64,000 nt of DNA from contig CALREW010000001.1 of assembly GCA_943356415.1 (NCBI GenBank), forward strand, positions 223,900 to 287,899, read 5' to 3'. Positions within the stretch are counted from its first letter, which is position 1; each line of letters begins with the position of its first letter. Source of the stretch: Candidatus Nomurabacteria bacterium. GTDB taxonomy: Bacteria; Patescibacteriota; Minisyncoccia; Phycocordibacterales; SBAW01. The notes under the pieces are model-generated. The model was not told the origin of the DNA, searched no databases, and was given only the letters and a program-made list of their open reading frames with translations. The position numbers and the translations under genes were made by a program. This document shows positions 4,017 to 61,380 of the stretch, in pieces.

Positions 4017-5132
4017 CTAATTTTCAGTACTTACAACTCCAACATCATGAGTAAGATCGATGTGCTCAAAATTGTGCGCTTCACAATATTTTTTTTCAAA
4101 ATCGTCCAGACCGAAACAGAGGCGCGGAGCATTCGCGTGCGCTGCTTCCCTACGCAATTGCGTAAATGCCCACGACCAACACGCAACGCGCCCAACTGCC
4201 GTACCTGAAACCGCTGCGCAGGCATCTACCGTTGCGGTTGCGTCGTAGTTTGTGACTAACGGCGCCGCATATCCTACCCCCTTGAAGCAACTTTCAACCG
4301 CAGAAGAAGAGAGCGTTATTGCACTATCACAATGTGCTCCCATCAGTGAATACAATTCATGTCTTTCTTTTGAATCAAGTAGTCGACGCCACCAAAACGG
4401 CTGCCAAAACATACACGCGTCTTGATACTGACTACTTACGCTCGTGCATGGTTGAAGAAACTCGACACCAGAGGAAGGCTGTTTTGGTGCTGTCTCATTA
4501 AATTGCAACATAACGTGCAAGTTATATTCCATAAAAACTCCGCCGTAACAACCTAATCCCAAATCGGTATGACGCTCCAGATTTGCACATTGCGTCAAAG
4601 ATTCTTGTAAGGCATCCGACGTATATCCCATATAACTTTCAATCGCATGCCCTATGCCGTGGTCACAGGTTCTCCTCTCCGCAATAGAATCTTCCTCAGC
4701 GCATCGTCGCTCAAGTTGACTGAGGCCAGCTTGTAACCCACTGCCCTTTACAAGCGTGGTAAAAAAAGCGTGCCAACAGCCTTGTCCAAATTGGTTGTCG
4801 CACACCGTAAACCCTTCTACGGGTTCGCGTTTGTAGAGTGCTTCACCGAAGGTATGTGCTTCAACGTGTTGATCCAAAATTGAAAATCTTGAAATTCCAG
4901 ATGCAAGTTCCTCATACGCTGCCTTGCCGCCCATTTCAGCGATTCTGCCTTCCCAGTATGTGACTTCTTCACTGTAGTCAGTTTTTCCTAACGATACGTG
5001 ACGAATGAAGTGCGAAGGACTAAATGTCTTCCGCATCGTATCTGGAAGAACATATATAAGAACTCCCAAACAAACGAGTAAGGTTGCTAAAAGGAGCCAA
5101 GCCAGGCCCGAGCACCACCGCGACTTCGACAT
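4017..5132 (-). CDS. Cys-rich membrane-anchored hypothetical protein (371 aa)
   Basis: One N-terminal TM helix, then a domain with about 14 regularly spaced cysteines. No known catalytic motif. Confidence 0.45.
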   Translation of the reverse strand: MSKSRWCSGLAWLLLATLLVCLGVLIYVLPDTMRKTFSPSHFIRHVSLGKTDYSEEVTYWEGRIAEMGGKAAYEELASGISRFSILDQHVEAHTFGEALYKREPVEGFTVCDNQFGQGCWHAFFTTLVKGSGLQAGLSQLERRCAEEDSIAERRTCDHGIGHAIESYMGYTSDALQESLTQCANLERHTDLGLGCYGGVFMEYNLHVMLQFNETAPKQPSSGVEFLQPCTSVSSQYQDACMFWQPFWWRRLLDSKERHELYSLMGAHCDSAITLSSSAVESCFKGVGYAAPLVTNYDATATVDACAAVSGTAVGRVACWSWAFTQLRREAAHANAPRLCFGLDDFEKKYCEAHNFEHIDLTHDVGVVSTEN

Positions 5133-5220
5133 ACAAGCATAGTAACAAAGACGAACTCAGCAGCGAGAATCCATCGCAGATGCAAAATAATACCGTATAC
5201 AAACATGATACGATCGGAGC

Positions 5221-5886
5221 GTGAGACAGGTCGCACCATGGATCAGGCGTTCCCTCTGGCGTGCGTTTGCTATTGCAGTAGGGCTTATTTCTATAGTCTC
5301 GTGCATCATCTATGCCACCGCCCCTGAGTTCGTGCACACACTGGAAAATCAGGTACGAACCTACTTTTTAAACGAGGCGCCTGTTCCCTGTCTTGGGTTG
5401 GATAAGCGACCACGTTCAATATGCTGGAACAAAGAAATACACTCGGCACTTAAAAAGAGCGTCATTGCGGCCTTTAACGGCATCACAAGCTCGCTTATCC
5501 AAGTGCCAATTCTCATCGGCCTCTGGAAGTTCAAGCGACTTCTGTGGTGGGAAAAGACGCTGTTTTTCGTCTTCCCATTTATGCCGGCAATCATGTGGTT
5601 CTCCCCGCCCGAAGCAAAGGACAACCTGTTTTTGGCCCTTACTCTCATCACGTTGGTACCGGCCTGCAGGCAGCCCTATGAGATGTGGAGGGCGGGTACG
5701 AGAGGAGCGGTCGAGATTAAGTTCTTCGGCACCCAGTTGATCAATTGCGCCGTCTGGATGGCGTTCGCTTTTTCCATCGGAACATGGGTCGTTATCTTGT
5801 GCCAGTCGCTTATGACGCTCACGGTCATCGCCACCGTCGCGCTGTGGTGCTGGTACCGCGCCAAAGAACCTAACCCGCCGAAGTAG
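5221..5886 (+). CDS. hypothetical integral membrane protein
   Basis: Five to six predicted TM helices; no motif. Confidence 0.4.
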   Translation: MRQVAPWIRRSLWRAFAIAVGLISIVSCIIYATAPEFVHTLENQVRTYFLNEAPVPCLGLDKRPRSICWNKEIHSALKKSVIAAFNGITSSLIQVPILIGLWKFKRLLWWEKTLFFVFPFMPAIMWFSPPEAKDNLFLALTLITLVPACRQPYEMWRAGTRGAVEIKFFGTQLINCAVWMAFAFSIGTWVVILCQSLMTLTVIATVALWCWYRAKEPNPPK

Positions 5887-27962: not shown

Positions 27963-30900
27963 ATGCCACTCACGCAGAAAATAAAAAAGCGCAACGGTGA
28001 AATCGCTGATTTCCATCGTGAAAAAATCGCCATCGCAATAAGCAAAGCGTTTCTTTCTGTTCTTCGCGATCCACACACTGAAGAGTCTGCCGCAATCGGT
28101 CGCACGGTGATTGAAGCGATCGAGCGCAAGTACGGTGAGAACCCGTCCATCATTCCTTCGGTTGAAGATATTCAAGACCTCGTAGAAAACGCACTCATGA
28201 GTCGTGGGTACTTTGCGGTTGCAAAGCACTACATCATCTATCGATACGAACATCAGAAAGAACGCGAGGCACGCAAAGAAGAAGTAAAACAACTTATCGC
28301 AACGCGTCAGTTGTCGGTGCGCAAGCGTGACGGACGCACGGAAGCATTTTCTTTGGAAAAAGTTCGTACGTCGCTCATGTTCGCGGTCGCCGGACAATCC
28401 GGCATCGACATCGACACGCTCGTGCGCCAAGTTGAAATGGAAGTGTTCGACGGTATCGAAACAAAAGACATCACGCGCACCCTCATCATGGTGACGCGTT
28501 CGATGATCGAAATTGAACCGGGCTACTCCAAAGTTGCAGCACGCCTCCTTCTCTCTTCTATTAATGGAGAGACTATGGGGCATGGCTTTGACTACACGCA
28601 GTTCGATGCACTCTATCGCCAAGCGTTTATTGCAAACGTCCGCAAAGCAGTTGAGTTGAAGAAGCTCGATCCAGAGCTTCTTACCTTTGATCTTGAAGCT
28701 ATCGCTAAGATGCTACGCCCGGAACGCGATGACAACCTGCTCTATCTCGGTCTACAAACCCTCGCCGACCGCTACTTTGTACGTGTGTCAGATAAAGGAG
28801 CGCTTCTTGAGAGTCCTCAATACTTCTTTATGCGTGTGGCCATGGGACTTGCCCTCGCTGAGAAAAAGGAAGTACGTATGAAATGGACCGAGGAGTTCTA
28901 CGACGTTATGTCACAACTTCACTATGTTCCTTCTACCCCGACCCTCTTTAACGCTGGTACTCCAGTAGCCCAGCTCTCCTCTTGTTACCTCAACACGGTG
29001 ATGGATGACTTGAGCCACATATTTAAGGTATATGGCGATAACGCTCAGCTCTCCAAGTGGACGGGCGGCATCGGCACCGACTACACCAACCTCCGCGGCA
29101 CGGGCGCCCGTATTGGTTCTACGACCGGCATGACCAGCCAGGGCGTCGTTCCCTTCCTTAAGATCTCAAACGACGTCACGGTGGCTATTAACCGTTCGGG
29201 ACGCCGCCGCGGTGCCACCTGCGCATACCTCGAGACCTGGCACTACGACATCGAAGACTTCATCGAACTTCGCAAGAACACCGGTGACGAGCGCCGCCGC
29301 ACCCACGACATGAACACGGCCAACTGGGTGCCGGACCTCTTTATGAAGCGCATCCGTGAAGATGGCGAATGGACACTCTTCTCTCCTGAAGAAGTTCCTG
29401 AACTCCACCACCTCTACGGTCGCGCATTTGAAGAAGCGTACGTTGCCGCAGAAGCTCGCGCTGATCAAAAGTCGATCAAGCTCTTCAAGCGCATGAAAGC
29501 GCGTGATCTCTGGAAGAAGATGCTCACACAGCTCTTCGAGACTGGACATCCGTGGATTACGTTCAAAGATCCGTCCAACATTCGCTCTCCGCAAGATCAC
29601 GCTGGTGTCGTGCATAACTCCAACCTCTGCACCGAAATCACACTCAACACCTCTGCTGAAGAAACCGCAGTCTGCAACCTCGGTTCCGTTAACTTTGCAC
29701 GTCACATAAAGGAAGGAGCGTTCGACGGCGAGAAAGTTGCTCGCACGGTCACAACCGCGATGCGCATGCTCGACAACGTTATCGACATCAACTTCTACCC
29801 CACCAAGGAAGCAAAGACTTCCAACATGCGTCATCGCCCGGTTGGTCTTGGCATCATGGGTTTCCAAGATGCGCTCTATCAACTCGGTATCAACTTCGAC
29901 AGCAATGAATGCGTAGACTTCGCAGACCGTTCGATGGAAATCGTTTCCTACTACGCAATACTCGGCTCTTCGCAACTTGCCAAAGAACGCGGTGCGTACG
30001 AATCGTTCAAAGGTTCCAAATGGGATCGCAACATCTTCCCGGTGGACACACTCGGTCTTCTTGAGCGCGAGCGCGGTGAAGCTATCGCCACCAACCGCAC
30101 AGAGCGCCTCGACTGGAGCGTAGTGCGCGCGTCGGTCAAAGAAAACGGCATGCGAAACAGTAACTGCATGGCTATCGCTCCGACTGCAACTATCTCCAAT
30201 ATCTCTGGCTGCACCGCAACCATTGAGCCCATGTACAAAAACATCTACGTCAAATCAAACATCTCAGGAGACTTCACAGTGGTAAATCCTTACCTCATTG
30301 AGGATCTCCGCCGCCTCGGCCTTTGGGATGCGGAGATGCTGGGTAAGCTGAAGTACCACGATGGCTCCATTGCACAGATACTCGAAATACCAGAAGAGAT
30401 ACGCGCCCGCTATAAAGAGACCTTCGAAGTAGATATGCAGTGGGTCATCAACGCCGCCGCCCATCGTGGCAAGTGGATAGACCAGTCGCAGTCCCTCAAC
30501 ATTTACTTTAAAGGCCAGTCAGGCAAGGACCTCTCGGATATCTATTTCCTAGCCTGGAATATGGGCCTTAAAACGACCTATTACCTCCGTACCGTTGCCG
30601 CCTCACAGGTTGAAAAGTCTACCGTCAGCATCGCTGAACACGGCGCAACCCACCTCCGCAAAAAGGATGAATCCTCTAATTCCTCAATGCCAGCACCAGT
30701 CACCCCCGTTGTCCCAATAGCTGCTTCGTCCATTCATGCGCAGTCTCCGGTTGTTGAAGGCGTAAAGATGAGTGCCGTTGCAGCCGCTGTTGGTGTCATT
30801 GCACCTATGTCCTCGGCAGCATCTATAACCACCGCCGTTAATGCCGCAAAGGCTGTCCACGTCCCTGGTGCAGAAGCCATTGCTTCGCCTATCAAAGCTG

Positions 30901-30989
30901 CTGATGTTACCCCGGTTCCCGTTGCTCAACCAAAAAAGGAGTACAAGATAGAAGTCATTGGAGACGCAGTGTGCGAAGCGTGCGAGTAA
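27963..30989 (+). CDS. nrdA: ribonucleoside-diphosphate reductase alpha subunit, with ATP-cone and a long C-terminal tail
   Basis: N-terminal ATP-cone and the NLCTEI active-site loop. An Ala/Val/Pro-rich C-terminal extension of about 110 aa ends in C-E-A-C-E. Confidence 0.85.
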   Translation: MPLTQKIKKRNGEIADFHREKIAIAISKAFLSVLRDPHTEESAAIGRTVIEAIERKYGENPSIIPSVEDIQDLVENALMSRGYFAVAKHYIIYRYEHQKEREARKEEVKQLIATRQLSVRKRDGRTEAFSLEKVRTSLMFAVAGQSGIDIDTLVRQVEMEVFDGIETKDITRTLIMVTRSMIEIEPGYSKVAARLLLSSINGETMGHGFDYTQFDALYRQAFIANVRKAVELKKLDPELLTFDLEAIAKMLRPERDDNLLYLGLQTLADRYFVRVSDKGALLESPQYFFMRVAMGLALAEKKEVRMKWTEEFYDVMSQLHYVPSTPTLFNAGTPVAQLSSCYLNTVMDDLSHIFKVYGDNAQLSKWTGGIGTDYTNLRGTGARIGSTTGMTSQGVVPFLKISNDVTVAINRSGRRRGATCAYLETWHYDIEDFIELRKNTGDERRRTHDMNTANWVPDLFMKRIREDGEWTLFSPEEVPELHHLYGRAFEEAYVAAEARADQKSIKLFKRMKARDLWKKMLTQLFETGHPWITFKDPSNIRSPQDHAGVVHNSNLCTEITLNTSAEETAVCNLGSVNFARHIKEGAFDGEKVARTVTTAMRMLDNVIDINFYPTKEAKTSNMRHRPVGLGIMGFQDALYQLGINFDSNECVDFADRSMEIVSYYAILGSSQLAKERGAYESFKGSKWDRNIFPVDTLGLLERERGEAIATNRTERLDWSVVRASVKENGMRNSNCMAIAPTATISNISGCTATIEPMYKNIYVKSNISGDFTVVNPYLIEDLRRLGLWDAEMLGKLKYHDGSIAQILEIPEEIRARYKETFEVDMQWVINAAAHRGKWIDQSQSLNIYFKGQSGKDLSDIYFLAWNMGLKTTYYLRTVAASQVEKSTVSIAEHGATHLRKKDESSNSSMPAPVTPVVPIAASSIHAQSPVVEGVKMSAVAAAVGVIAPMSSAASITTAVNAAKAVHVPGAEAIASPIKAADVTPVPVAQPKKEYKIEVIGDAVCEACE

Positions 30990-31073: not shown

Positions 31074-32108
31074 ATGGCCATACAGAGAAATGCCCCGCCC
31101 GTAGACGTCAACCAACGCCGCATCATGGGCGGTACTGAAGCCGACGTCATCCAGCTGTATCCCATGAAGCACAAGTTCGCTTGGGAGTACTACAACACCG
31201 CCAACGCCAACCACTGGCTTCCGACCGAAATCTCCATGCAGCTCGATATCGAGCAATGGAAATCCCCGACCGCGCTTTCTGCTGACGAAAGGCGGGCGTT
31301 CGAGACCGTGCTCGGTTTCTTCACCACCGCAGACTCCATCGCCGCAAACAACATCGTGATGGGTTTCTACAAGCACGTCTCCTCGCCTGAGGTGCGCATG
31401 TACTTGCTGCGCCAGGCATACGAAGAGGCCATCCACACACACGCGTACCAATACATCGTTGAATCGCTCGGTCTCAACCAGGCCAAGATCTTCAACATGT
31501 ACCGCGAGATTGACTCCATCTACAACAAAGAGGAGTTTATCCTCGGCTTCAACGAAGGTATCTTCGACGGCGACTTCAAGATGGACACGTTCGAGAATAA
31601 ACAAAAGTTCCTTGAGAACTGGTGTGTATTCTCACTTATCCTCGAAGGTATCTTCTTCTATTCGTCCTTTGCGGTAATGCTCGGCTTCCAGCGCCAACAC
31701 AAACTGACTGGCTCTGCAGAGCAGATTCAATACATCATGCGCGACGAGTCGATGCACCTAAACTTCGGCGTTGAAGTCATCAACACCATCAAGGAAGAAA
31801 ATCCGGAACTTTGGACCAATGACTTCGCTCGCAAAATTATCGAGCTCGTTAAGAAGGCCGTGGTGCTTGAATATACGTTCGCTAAAGAAGTCTTCCCGAC
31901 CGGCATCTTCGGTATGAACGCCGATGGCTTCAAGCAGTACATCGAGTACATCGCCGACCGCCGCTTGCAGCGCGTAGGCCTCACACCGCAATACAACGTC
32001 CAAAACCCATTCCCCTGGATGTCTGAAGCGATTGACCTATCCAAGGAGAAGAACTTCTTCGAAACCAGGGTCATCGAATATCAGGTCGGTGGTCAACTAA
32101 ACTGGTAA
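31074..32108 (+). CDS. nrdB: ribonucleoside-diphosphate reductase beta subunit
   Basis: E..H iron ligands (EEAIHTHAYQYI, DESMHLNFG) and the radical-site Tyr context. Confidence 0.85.
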   Translation: MAIQRNAPPVDVNQRRIMGGTEADVIQLYPMKHKFAWEYYNTANANHWLPTEISMQLDIEQWKSPTALSADERRAFETVLGFFTTADSIAANNIVMGFYKHVSSPEVRMYLLRQAYEEAIHTHAYQYIVESLGLNQAKIFNMYREIDSIYNKEEFILGFNEGIFDGDFKMDTFENKQKFLENWCVFSLILEGIFFYSSFAVMLGFQRQHKLTGSAEQIQYIMRDESMHLNFGVEVINTIKEENPELWTNDFARKIIELVKKAVVLEYTFAKEVFPTGIFGMNADGFKQYIEYIADRRLQRVGLTPQYNVQNPFPWMSEAIDLSKEKNFFETRVIEYQVGGQLNW

Positions 32109-32247
32109 CTAGAACTTTCTAAAAGTCTCACCTGCTGTGTTGCGGGGCCCCAAGCACTCGTCACCGTATACGAGATACGTCTCCTCGTACTTATCCCCGC
32201 GCCTTGCATCTGAAAACTTTTAGAGAGTTCCGAGACTCCAAACACAT

Positions 32248-32646
32248 ATGCGACATATCACATTTCGACTAAAGGGCGGACAGCTTCTAAAAGAAGAAAT
32301 TGAGCTACAAGCGAAGAATATTCCTGCAGGAGTCTTGCTTTCTGTCGTCGGCGCCCTTGAGAACGTGAATCTGCGTATGGCAGGTGCAACGCCTGACCGA
32401 CAAGATATTCGAAATCTTGAAGGTCCTTTTGAAATCGTCTCGGGTATCGGAACAGTTTCAAGTAGTGGATGCCACCTCCACCTTTCTGTTTCTGACAAAG
32501 AAGGAAGGGTACTGGGAGGCCACCTCAAGGAGGGTTGTCGTGTTGGGGTAACGGTGGAGGTGGTTATAGGTGTACTTGAAGGCACGACTTACAGACGAAC
32601 CCTGGACGAAGACACAGGGTTTAAAGAGTTAGAAACCCAAACATGA
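32248..32646 (+). CDS. PPC (DUF296) domain protein
   Basis: GPFEIVSGIGTVS..G.HLHLSVSD.EGRVLGGHL core. Stop overlaps the next start (ATGA). Confidence 0.55.
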   Translation: MRHITFRLKGGQLLKEEIELQAKNIPAGVLLSVVGALENVNLRMAGATPDRQDIRNLEGPFEIVSGIGTVSSSGCHLHLSVSDKEGRVLGGHLKEGCRVGVTVEVVIGVLEGTTYRRTLDEDTGFKELETQT

Positions 32647-33125
32647 CCCAGCACGACAGTGAGACGCCGGCAGAAGGTAAGCAGGTTATAACTGCGTGCG
32701 CGTTTATTCATCACAACTTTGATGGCGTAGAGAAAGTTTTTCTACCCAAGCGTGCTGCGACGAAGAAGTTTCTGCCGAATGTGTTTGAGCTACCTGGCGG
32801 ACATATAGACTTCGGTGAAGATATTGTAGAAGGATTGAAGCGCGAAGTGATGGAGGAACACGGTATGAATATCTCCGTGGGAGACCCGTTTGCGGTTTTT
32901 ACGTATCTAAACAAAGTAAAAGGCTCGCACTCCGTTGAGGCAGTGTATTTTGCCTCCTTCACCGACCCGCTCGAAAATATCCGCCTAAACCCAGAAGACC
33001 ATTCAGAGTACCGTTGGGCAGCTGAAGAAGAAATTGAGGCTTTAACGGAACTAAGCGGCGAAGAGCGAGACAATACCTACAAGGGCTTTGCTCTCCTTCG
33101 CGGCGAACCTCATATATTTGGGTGA
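32643..33125 (+). CDS. Nudix hydrolase
   Basis: Nudix box GGHIDFGEDIVEGLKREVMEEHG. Confidence 0.7.
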   Translation: MTQHDSETPAEGKQVITACAFIHHNFDGVEKVFLPKRAATKKFLPNVFELPGGHIDFGEDIVEGLKREVMEEHGMNISVGDPFAVFTYLNKVKGSHSVEAVYFASFTDPLENIRLNPEDHSEYRWAAEEEIEALTELSGEERDNTYKGFALLRGEPHIFG

Positions 33126-33128
33126 TGT

Positions 33129-33656
33129 ATGAATAAGGAAGACCGACAAAATCTCACCGCCCTCATTGAGGCAAACGGAGGTGCCGATTGGTGGGACCCG
33201 CAGGAGTTTCAGGCTTCTGTTCGCGCAAAACTCCCCACACAGCTCCAGATACTTTCTGTTCCTCCGTCTCCTGCATCAAACTACAATTGTTTCGTATACG
33301 CCCTCGGCCTCGAAGGTCGTAAGGCATTCCTTGGAGGCAATAACCCAGTCCAAAAGGAATTTATTCAACATCTCCTAAATAAAGGTGTACTCGGGCTAGT
33401 TGAAAAGCCTACAGAAGGTGATCTTATTTTTTATAAAGATGAAGGTGGCACAATAACCCACGGCGGGATTGTAAGCGCCGGCGGAAAAATATCTTCAAAA
33501 TGGATGTGGGGCGCACTCTTCTCCCACGAAACCTGGGATGTTCCTTCTTCTTTCGGAGATATTGTTTTCTATACAAACAGACCTCTACCTGAAGTGCTAG
33601 AAAAAGAATACGAGGATTACAAAAACAGTGGAGCCATCATTAATCCAATTCAATAA
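33129..33656 (+). CDS. papain-fold Cys/His hydrolase-like protein (NlpC/P60 or CHAP-type), tentative
   Basis: Y-N-C-F-V-Y-A-L-G, then GDLIFY...ITHGGIV, follows the Cys...His order of NlpC/P60. Family not certain. Confidence 0.35.
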   Translation: MNKEDRQNLTALIEANGGADWWDPQEFQASVRAKLPTQLQILSVPPSPASNYNCFVYALGLEGRKAFLGGNNPVQKEFIQHLLNKGVLGLVEKPTEGDLIFYKDEGGTITHGGIVSAGGKISSKWMWGALFSHETWDVPSSFGDIVFYTNRPLPEVLEKEYEDYKNSGAIINPIQ

Positions 33657-34099
33657 TGGCTGAACATTTTAAAATTATGCCAGCGGTGTTCTTAGTTCTT
33701 ATCAAGGACGGTACCGTTCTACTTGCTCGGCGAGCCAATACTGGCCATCAAGATGGAAACTACGGCCTCCCTGCTGGGCACCTCGAGCAAGGAGAGTCAG
33801 TGCGTGAAGGCATTGTTCGTGAAGCGCGGGAGGAGGTAGCCGTTATTCTCGAGACTGAGGATATGAGCGTCGTACACGTCATGCAGCGCAACAAAGATGT
33901 TCCAGGTAAGGAATACGTAGACTTCTATCTCACTGCCAATCACTGGGCCGGTGAACCTAAAAATAACGAGCCCGAAAAGTGCGACGACGTCGCTTGGTTT
34001 CCACTCGACAACTTGCCTCCAAACACTATTCCCTACGTGCGCCAAGCCATAGACTGCATCCGCCGCAATCAACACTTCTCCGAATTCAACTTCAACTAA
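33656..34099 (+). CDS. Nudix hydrolase
   Basis: Nudix box GHLEQGESVREGIVREAREEVAV. Start overlaps the previous stop (TAATGG). Confidence 0.7.
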   Translation: MAEHFKIMPAVFLVLIKDGTVLLARRANTGHQDGNYGLPAGHLEQGESVREGIVREAREEVAVILETEDMSVVHVMQRNKDVPGKEYVDFYLTANHWAGEPKNNEPEKCDDVAWFPLDNLPPNTIPYVRQAIDCIRRNQHFSEFNFN

Positions 34100-34177
34100 C
34101 AAAGCTAGCGTATTTAAAAAAACACACTCCTTGTCGCTATAGAGACAAGGAGTGTGTTTTTGCTTTTACCTAATGAA

Positions 34178-34636
34178 TTAGGCCGCTTTGGGCAAATCTC
34201 TCTCTATCATATGGTCACCCAAGATGCTCTCTATCTCATGCATGCGCTCATTCGCATCAAACGAGTCCTTCGTCTCACTAGAAAGCAACCGATCGAATGT
34301 GGGGGCAACTGCATCAAGTGCTCCTTTAAGCTTTTCTGCCGCTTTTGGGTCTGAAAGAGTCGCAAGATGCGCCTTTAAAGCACTTTGGTACGCAGCCGCC
34401 TCTTCCTTTATAAAAGGCATTTGCTCTTCTCCACCTTCAAGATTACCGAATGCAACTTTAAAGTAATTGGCTGAGGTTGCGACATTCTGTGGAATGATTC
34501 TAATCGCCAACTCGAAACCTTTTTTAGCACGCACCTGATCTCGACTAAGTCCTGAGTCATTCGCCTCTATGCGAGGAGGTCTATTCATGTTCATAGCAAT
34601 AACTATATGCCGGCCTGCTTCGTTTGCAATAGGCAC
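34178..34636 (-). CDS. hypothetical protein (152 aa)
   Basis: Intact ORF upstream of truB; no motif. Confidence 0.35.
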   Translation of the reverse strand: MPIANEAGRHIVIAMNMNRPPRIEANDSGLSRDQVRAKKGFELAIRIIPQNVATSANYFKVAFGNLEGGEEQMPFIKEEAAAYQSALKAHLATLSDPKAAEKLKGALDAVAPTFDRLLSSETKDSFDANERMHEIESILGDHMIERDLPKAA

Positions 34637-43750: not shown

Positions 43751-50605
<6,855 letters not shown>

Positions 50606-60432: not shown

Positions 60433-61380
60433 TTAGCGTTTCCGGTTCTTCGGTCGCTCAGTTACTCGAGGCATCTGAGAGGCCATCTCATCACCCACCA
60501 ACTTTCCCACCGCAAGCGTCACAATCGGCAACATGTCGCCGTAGAAGTTGAGATCGAGGCAATCTTTCACCTTAAACCAACGCGCATCATCGAGACCCCC
60601 TTTCTCTTCAAGCGTAATGTCGTCGTAGGGCGCTTCAGCCAAAAAGTATGTGACGTGTTTGCGCTTCTTTCCCACCTCTGGGTCTGACGCAATGTACTCG
60701 TTTTCTCCTATCTTCTCTTTCAACTCAACATCGAGCCCGAGTTCTTCTTTCATCTCGCGAATCGTTCCCTGCTCGATCGTCTCTCCTTCTTCAATCTTTC
60801 CTTTAGAGAGGGTCCAATGTCCGAAGATATCGTGAACGAGGGCCAGATAGACTTCGCCGTTATGGCGCGCGTATACCACTGCGCCACCGAGGTTTAGAAC
60901 GGGCATTTCCTCGTACGGAATTTCCTTTTTCTTTTTCTTGCTGGTCTCGTCTTTCCCAGGCTCGCCAAGTTCTTTGTACACCGCGCCAAGAACGCCGTTT
61001 ACAAACTTACCTGAAGTGTCTCCACCGTAACTTTTTGCCAGCTCTATCGCCTCATTGATGGCGACTTTTGCAGGCACTTGGTTTCGGTCTGAGAAAAGAA
61101 GCTCGTAGAGGCCGAGGCGCAATATATTGCGGTCGACCATAGCGATACGGTCGATAGGCCACTCAGGAGCGGCTTTTTCTATAACGAGATCGAGGTCCGG
61201 CCGGCGCGAAAGAATACCGCGCAGGAGTTCCTGCATAAACGGTACATCGCCTGCTTTAGGCGCGAACTCATTGGCATTGCGAATAAGCGCCTCGAGAGTT
61301 GCTTCCTGCGGCAATTCGCGGAAGTCCCACTCGAAGAGGGTTTGCATTACTACGGACCGTGAGAGGTGCCGATTCGCCAT
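60433..61380 (-). CDS. nusB: NusB-like antitermination domain fused to a Nudix hydrolase domain
   Basis: The N-terminal ~150 aa are NusB-like (R..AR..A.Q.L...). The C-terminal part carries a Nudix box (GKIEEGETIEQGTIREMKEELG). Confidence 0.6.
   Translation of the reverse strand: MANRHLSRSVVMQTLFEWDFRELPQEATLEALIRNANEFAPKAGDVPFMQELLRGILSRRPDLDLVIEKAAPEWPIDRIAMVDRNILRLGLYELLFSDRNQVPAKVAINEAIELAKSYGGDTSGKFVNGVLGAVYKELGEPGKDETSKKKKKEIPYEEMPVLNLGGAVVYARHNGEVYLALVHDIFGHWTLSKGKIEEGETIEQGTIREMKEELGLDVELKEKIGENEYIASDPEVGKKRKHVTYFLAEAPYDDITLEEKGGLDDARWFKVKDCLDLNFYGDMLPIVTLAVGKLVGDEMASQMPRVTERPKNRKR

Follow-up and report, generated by a model that had tools for sequence, protein, structure and literature searches.

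We analysed a stretch of 64,000 nucleotides from a Candidatus Nomurabacteria genome (contig CALREW010000001.1, positions 223,900 to 287,899 of the forward strand), hereafter called the window, in whose numbering the positions below are given. The study concerned a cluster of four plus-strand open reading frames (ORFs) at 32248-34099. In order, these encode a PCC/DUF296 (PPC) domain protein of 132 aa (32248-32646), a Nudix hydrolase of 160 aa that we call NudA (32643-33125), a DUF7689 protein of 175 aa (33129-33656), and a second Nudix hydrolase, NudB, of 147 aa (33656-34099). The ORF listing returned exactly the coordinates given by an initial annotation, which had interpreted the cluster as a dedicated system for the processing of some molecule linked to a nucleotide, for example by ADP-ribosylation or nucleotidylation. 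The junctions that it had described could also be read in the sequence. The PCC and NudA genes share a 4-nt ATGA overlap (AACATGACC), the NudA and DUF7689 genes are separated by a 3-nt gap (TGAtgtATG), and the DUF7689 and NudB genes overlap by 1 nt (TAATG). All four ORFs are genuine genes, because three of the products contain Pfam domains that score far over threshold, while the fourth has 35 close homologs and about 970 distant homolog clusters.

The first protein of the cluster belongs to the PCC/DUF296 family (PF03479, E = 1.2e-25, 90.6 bits for a cutoff of 25). Its nearest solved structures are 2p6y, 2hx0, and 2nmu. Orthologs that are 60-78% identical occur over many Patescibacteria lineages, across orders, and residues His76-x-His78...His92 were invariant in 24 of them. 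These three histidines (codons 32473-32475, 32479-32481, and 32521-32523, plus strand) form a putative zinc site. The same HxH-x13-H spacing is found in LmiA, a DUF296 protein of E. coli O157 that was reported to be a DNA-binding virulence regulator with a putative zinc site at H85/H87/H101 (PMC7667037). The likeness to LmiA, to 2p6y and 2hx0, and to the PPC domain of plant AHL proteins consists in the strong Pfam match and the same putative zinc site; the cluster protein lacks an AT-hook. A scan of viral contigs for PCC relatives found none.

For the two Nudix proteins, assignment to the superfamily (PF00293) was based on the presence of the box GX5EX7REUXEEXGU together with a Pfam score above the gathering cutoff. 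NudA has a complete box from G53 to M75 (GHIDFGEDIVEGLKREVMEEHGM, 32799-32867) and matched the Pfam NUDIX profile with E = 6e-15 (55.8 bits, cutoff 21.1). The box of NudB extends from G41 to V63 (GHLEQGESVREGIVREAREEVAV, 33776-33844) and retains all Glu and Arg positions, its last Gly being replaced by Ala; the profile match was stronger (E = 3.5e-20, 72.8 bits), and NudB also just reached NUDIX_4 (35.3 bits, cutoff 35). The relationship between the two proteins is distant, with only 44% identity over 41 residues. The nearest solved relatives of NudA are MutT2, plant NUDX1, and NUDT15 (E about 1e-6), and those of NudB are NUDX1/geranyl diphosphate phosphohydrolase, an entry described as a 'MutT' ADP-ribose pyrophosphatase, NUDT15, and E. 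coli MutT (E from 1e-13 to 3e-8). Thus, both share with the MutT/NUDT1/NUDT15 type the Nudix box, the small single-domain form, and the closest solved relatives. They differ from it in scoring far below the equivalog cutoff, with 33.7 bits for NudA and 39.9 bits for NudB on the model of MutT 8-oxo-dGTP diphosphatase (TIGR00586 / NF008044, cutoff 97.9), and NudB differs further by the Ala in its box. NudA and NudB are MutT-like only in the sense of their nearest relatives.

The initial annotation had favoured a substrate of the ADP-ribose type, which found no backing in the subfamily features of either protein. All scores were far below the cutoffs, being 16.5 for a cutoff of 248 with the ADP-ribose model nudF, 15.2 and 36.7 for a cutoff of 158 with the NAD diphosphatase model, and 17.1 for a cutoff of 134 with the coenzyme A (CoA) pyrophosphatase model. 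A proline located 16 residues past the Nudix box reportedly marks ADP-ribose pyrophosphatases; NADH-specific Nudix enzymes contain the motif SQPWPFPxS and CoA-specific ones a NuCoA motif upstream. None of these ADP-ribose, NADH, and CoA motifs was found in the NudA and NudB sequences, and on the NCBIfam scores and motifs together we rejected ADP-ribose specificity. A third Nudix domain is present in the window, in a 315-aa fusion encoded on the minus strand at 60433-61380, which comprises a complete NusB domain (PF01029, E = 1.2e-34) and a C-terminal NUDIX domain (E = 9e-17). This brings the number of Nudix domains to three among about 67 genes.

The 175-aa protein had been described as a papain-fold enzyme on account of a Cys in the motif YNCFVYALG and a His in ITHGGIV. 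Both motifs are present, and the protein is a member of the Pfam family DUF7689 (PF24738, E = 3.8e-7, 31.3 bits, cutoff 22.6), to which its homologs are also annotated; it is a plain member, which nothing sets apart from the rest of the family. A first homolog search returned 35 close homologs, each about 175 aa long, and an exhaustive profile search returned 974 clusters at 50% identity (E ≤ 1e-3). Patescibacteria contribute the named members (Kaiser-, Pacei-, Sacchari-, Nomura-, and Vogelbacteria), with further ones in Gallionella and Candidatus Contendobacter metagenome-assembled genomes (MAGs) and one on a plasmid of the endosymbiont Candidatus Megaira. None was found in 50,697 phage records. 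No paper mentioning DUF7689 came up in the literature search, and the family is without a described function.

Among 105 diverse relatives, C54 and H111 are invariant, as is S123, and these three are the only residues of which this is true (codons 33288-33290, 33459-33461, and 33495-33497, respectively, on the plus strand). K124, W125, H133, P139, and G143 are conserved in at least 90% of the same relatives. C54 starts a helix, H111 is located on a strand, and S123 is on the strand after that, 12 residues from H111. The conserved Cys at a helix N-terminus and the conserved His on the following beta-strand correspond to an alpha+beta, papain-like fold of the NlpC/P60 kind. At the level of sequence profiles, the protein fell short of NlpC/P60 (PF00877; 13.2 bits, cutoff 23), and searches of PDB sequence profiles with the DUF7689 alignments returned nothing meaningful. 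In NlpC/P60 enzymes such as MepS, the third catalytic residue is found about 12 residues after the His, and it is His, Asn, Asp, Glu, or Gln, Ser being atypical.

Among known enzymes, the closest are the cysteine peptidases and amidases of the NlpC/P60 superfamily, for example YkfC of Bacillus cereus (PDB 3h41), E. coli MepS/Spr, LytE, and SagA. Unlike them, the DUF7689 protein has an invariant Ser in an S-K-W motif, rather than His, Asn, or Asp, at the third position; its N-terminus carries an additional segment of two helices, in which R6, L9, and W21-W22 are conserved; and it lacks cell-wall-binding domains and a cell-wall gene context. Its N-terminus is hydrophilic and devoid of a signal peptide, and the enzyme should therefore be cytoplasmic. 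The lack of a signal peptide and of wall-binding domains also led us to reject the role of a secreted cell-wall hydrolase. A distant homolog, P0104, in which DUF7689/NlpC_P60 is present as a tandem double, does look secreted, with an N-terminus resembling a signal peptide. Other homologs are fused to a C39-like peptidase (P0038), a PemK/MazF-like domain (P0056), or the putative endonuclease DUF1780 (P0129); each of these is represented by one cluster, which comes from a single short contig, and the fusion partners show no consistent theme.

We then surveyed gene neighbourhoods, taking either DUF7689 or PCC as the anchor. The DUF7689 loci comprised 17 from GTDB species representatives, 80 from metagenomes, which were gathered with a narrower alignment than the one of 105 sequences, and several contigs obtained by exact look-up; deduplication left 83 distinct loci. 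PCC was near DUF7689 in none of these 83 loci, and DUF7689 was absent from all five PCC contexts described below. Only L001 and L002, identical copies from one organism, had the exact four-gene order, and therefore the four genes are not co-located in any unrelated genome of the sample. A conserved multi-gene system should bring the same gene set together in unrelated genomes, which was not observed here. The initial annotation had itself stated that its proposal would be refuted if the four genes were never found together elsewhere, and within the sampled data this is the case; a dedicated system for a nucleotide-linked substrate is not supported.

Nudix genes made up 2 of the 141 immediate neighbours of DUF7689 and 4 of the 616 other genes (Pfam; Fisher p = 0.31). 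This adjacency is at background, since Nudix proteins amount to 6 of the 757 proteins called in these loci. A Nudix gene lies directly beside DUF7689 in L006 and L106 and at most three genes away in L052. Across lineages, the Nudix partners that adjoin DUF7689 or are fused to it are at most 29% identical to each other and to NudA and NudB. In contrast, the gene of a GFA-family zinc protein (PF04828, about 115-135 aa) adjoined DUF7689 in 13 of the 83 loci, on either side and with gaps of 2-18 nt (L007 at 4657-5522, L017, L059, L080, L087-L089, L091, L093-L095, L098). Every GFA gene of the surveyed loci adjoined DUF7689 (p = 2e-9), and it was the only recurrent partner. In these loci, GFA and DUF7689 form a two-gene module. 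The 64-kb window contains no GFA gene. The other neighbours were mixed and included methyltransferases, GrpB, APH and AAA_33/zeta-toxin-like kinases, a nucleoside deoxyribosyltransferase, and a peptidase S9. Separately, L006, L014, and L015, from a contig of 126,716 bp of Candidatus Paceibacteria CJ05B_2.98, showed a block of several genes (EF-G-like GTPase, ornithine decarboxylase, two DUF421, DUF7689, and Nudix) that is duplicated as a mirror image. This is either a genuine inverted repeat of large size or a palindrome created in assembly.

PCC orthologs that are 62-73% identical were examined in five independent contexts (L109, L111, L113, L114, and L118), where the gene orders were as follows. 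One reads SecA, methyltransferase, PCC, tRNA_bind, NUDIX, a 147-aa protein, and HD (YfbR-like), with a further NUDIX beyond; another NUDIX, a 128-aa protein, a hydrolase, NUDIX, PCC, an 89-aa protein, and a glyoxalase; a third SecA, PCC, AAA_18, NUDIX, and His_Phos_1; and a fourth SecA, PCC, and HD, with NTPase_I-T farther on. The last, from a Moranbacteria MAG, reads PCC, DUF1653, NUDIX, MazG-like, a 90-aa protein, NUDIX, DUF1761, and NUDIX. Nudix genes accounted for 8 of the 58 genes in these contexts, compared with 6 of 757 in the background (p = 9e-7, about 20-fold enrichment), and one was located within two genes of PCC in four of the five. In Patescibacteria, PCC is accompanied by nucleotide house-cleaning hydrolases in arrays of variable composition, a consistent pattern in a small sample. 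Its recurrent siting beside Nudix, MazG, HD, and ITPase genes was not described in the literature that we searched, in which DUF296 and Nudix were mentioned together only incidentally. It was also observed that SecA precedes the PCC ortholog in three of these relatives.

Upstream of the cluster, on the same strand, lie the genes of the large (nrdA, 27963-30989; Pfam ATP-cone and Ribonuc_red_lgN/lgC) and small (nrdB, 31074-32108; Pfam Ribonuc_red_sm) subunits of class I ribonucleotide reductase. Their Pfam matches were precomputed and taken on the identical copy L001. In the region 31900-32248, which includes the 139-nt spacer between nrdB and the PCC gene, the terminator and promoter scans detected no strong terminator and no plus-strand promoter match; more generally, the promoter scan returned no plus-strand sigma-70-like site close to the cluster. 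The spacer is structured (32112-32230, plus strand). Within it, 89 nt separate the two arms of an inverted repeat of 15 nt (GAACTTTCTAAAAGT / ACTTTTAGAGAGTTC), and the predicted RNA fold of the spacer has an energy of -42.7 kcal/mol (z = -4.8), which none of 200 shuffled sequences equalled. No other copy of the arms was found in the window. Because no T run follows, this hairpin is not a canonical intrinsic terminator; it could be an element of RNA processing or stability, or a protein-binding site.

Downstream of NudB, a strong palindromic hairpin at 34118-34161, to which no strand was assigned, was detected by both the terminator scan, as 18 pairs followed by GCTTTT, and the search for inverted repeats, as 22-nt arms that are 95% complementary with a spacer of 0 and have an A run on one side and a T run on the other. 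A convergent gene on the minus strand (34178-34636), whose 152-aa product has no Pfam match, faces this hairpin, and the latter is therefore probably a bidirectional intrinsic terminator shared by that gene and the cluster. The four genes are probably co-transcribed, and the cluster is probably transcribed with or after nrdAB. The window is 92% coding (52.6% GC), and of its 34 pairs of neighbouring genes in the same direction, 11 are no more than 5 nt apart. Since tight junctions are common in a genome that is 92% coding, the spacing supports co-transcription and gives only weak support to a shared function. The genes around the cluster are housekeeping genes (ribonucleotide reductase, TruB, HisRS, and BacA). 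Within the cluster, the DUF7689 gene has the lowest GC content (0.42-0.47, versus about 0.50). This is a weak hint, and a recent horizontal insertion of the gene is not claimed.

From the gene structure, the family and fold assignments, the conserved residues, and the neighbourhood statistics, we consider it reasonably probable that the cluster is a PCC-led nucleotide house-cleaning array located behind nrdAB, with the DUF7689 gene as an unrelated passenger, and that in this Patescibacteria genome, of the Parcubacteria/Paceibacteria type, it is lineage-specific rather than a conserved multi-component system. All the families concerned (PCC, Nudix, and DUF7689) are catalogued and their arrangement is not conserved; the operon is an ordinary one, specific to its lineage and made up of genes of known kinds. 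The core of the array would consist of the PCC gene, followed by the genes of two different MutT/NUDT1-like Nudix pyrophosphohydrolases. NudA and NudB would most likely hydrolyse non-canonical or surplus (deoxy)nucleoside triphosphates ((d)NTPs) or related diphosphates, an activity that would fit their position next to a reductase producing dNTPs; this siting is also in line with the role of the MutT/NUDT1/NUDT15 type in the upkeep of the nucleotide pool. The PCC protein would be a small DNA-binding regulator of the array, as suggested by the analogy with LmiA of E. coli O157, or else an accessory factor. The DUF7689 gene would have been inserted between the two Nudix genes as a passenger, its product working independently of the Nudix enzymes. 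In this product, Cys54 is the putative nucleophile, His111 the putative base, and Ser123 the candidate at the position of the third triad residue. Most likely a thiol amidase or a thioesterase, this enzyme would cleave the amide or thioester bond of some small molecule in the cytoplasm.

Several points weigh against this interpretation. The three successive coupled junctions of the cluster are the tightest run in the window. The enrichment of Nudix genes near PCC comes from only five contexts, it was calculated against a background that consisted of other Patescibacteria lineages and was scored with a different Nudix detector, and the Nudix genes found beside PCC orthologs are not orthologs of NudA or NudB (at most 31% identity). 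Neither of these proteins reached any NCBIfam equivalog cutoff, and their substrate is therefore not assignable from sequence. For the DUF7689 protein, the Foldseek matches to NlpC/P60 were remote and marginal (best E = 6e-3, TM-score 0.2-0.4), and S123 was placed at the third triad position from spacing and predicted strand order only. Furthermore, a 344-aa fusion of DUF7689 with a Nudix domain exists (P0049, a single cluster found on two short contigs), and because of it a functional link between the two is possible in a subset of lineages. If so, a minority of lineages, this one included, might contain a looser pairing, in which DUF7689 and whatever Nudix enzyme is available would act on a conjugate that contains a diphosphate together with an amide or thioester bond, for instance an acyl or peptidyl compound activated by CoA or a nucleotide, and PCC would serve as a regulator only. 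Besides P0049 and the adjacencies of L006 and L106, the present cluster itself, with a Nudix gene on each side of DUF7689 at a distance of a 3-nt gap and a 1-nt overlap, agrees with such a pairing. We nevertheless regard it as unlikely, since Nudix adjacency shows no statistical enrichment, the partners are not orthologs of one another, the genome is simply rich in Nudix domains (three in 67 genes, with one fused to NusB), and P0049 could be an artefact of gene calling or assembly. A bolder form of the same idea is that in this lineage a PCC-led Nudix array recruited the DUF7689 Cys-His-Ser hydrolase so that the pyrophosphate and the amide or thioester bond of a nucleotide- or CoA-linked acyl or peptidyl conjugate would be dismantled jointly, that the same pairing arose independently in P0049, and that the PCC/DUF296 proteins of Patescibacteria are, more generally, dedicated regulators or partners of nucleotide house-cleaning hydrolases. 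We consider this speculative and rather improbable; if true, it would provide the first physiological role of the widespread PCC/DUF296 domain outside virulence regulation.

The dedicated four-protein pathway of the initial annotation, in which the Nudix enzymes would cut a pyrophosphate bond and the papain-fold enzyme an amide or ester bond while PCC would bind nucleic acid or the substrate, could draw on the three coupled junctions followed by a single terminator, on the natural fusion P0049, and on the Nudix genes adjoining DUF7689 in L006 and L106 or lying within three genes of it in L052. It appears very unlikely to us. The mutual absence of PCC and DUF7689 from each other's neighbourhoods (0/83 and 0/5) speaks directly against it, as do the background level of Nudix adjacency and the mutually unrelated subtypes of the Nudix partners; moreover, NudA and NudB are not near the ADP-ribose, NADH, or CoA cutoffs and lack the Pro 16 residues past the box, and it is GFA that truly recurs beside DUF7689. 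From the original description, the domains, the Cys/His pair, and the probable co-transcription are retained, and the dedicated system is not. A conflict or defence module, either toxin-antitoxin or anti-phage, with the papain-fold or Nudix proteins as effectors, was suggested by matches of NudA and NudB to the PADLOC candidate PDC-S07 (E = 2e-14 and 1e-11) and by the DUF7689 homologs fused to a PemK/MazF toxin, to DUF1780, or to a C39-like peptidase. PDC-S07 is, however, a single-gene Nudix profile of 135 residues without a curated cutoff, and the matches to it may reflect only the common Nudix fold; DUF7689 and PCC had no PADLOC match. The occurrence of DUF7689 on one plasmid only and in no phage record, the housekeeping genes that flank the cluster, and the conservation of PCC orthologs across orders, which is unlike that of fast-evolving conflict genes, make this explanation scarcely credible. 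With the four-part system set aside, the house-cleaning array with a passenger remains our preferred interpretation.

Two smaller, incremental leads emerge in place of the four-part system. DUF7689 is a broadly distributed cytoplasmic family with an NlpC/P60 fold, an invariant Cys-His-Ser set, and a GFA partner, which together provide a starting point for assigning its function. The repeated siting of PCC by Nudix, MazG, HD, and ITPase genes hints at a role in quality control of the nucleotide pool in organisms that depend on salvaged nucleotides. Compared with the literature searched, three observations are modestly new, namely that DUF7689 has this fold and this Cys-His-Ser set, that GFA is its partner, and that PCC is associated with house-cleaning hydrolases. 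As to the rest of the 64-kb window, it contained no tRNA gene (ARAGORN), no Rfam family at the gathering threshold, and no riboswitch. A single ORF of 2284 aa occupies positions 43751-50605 on the minus strand.

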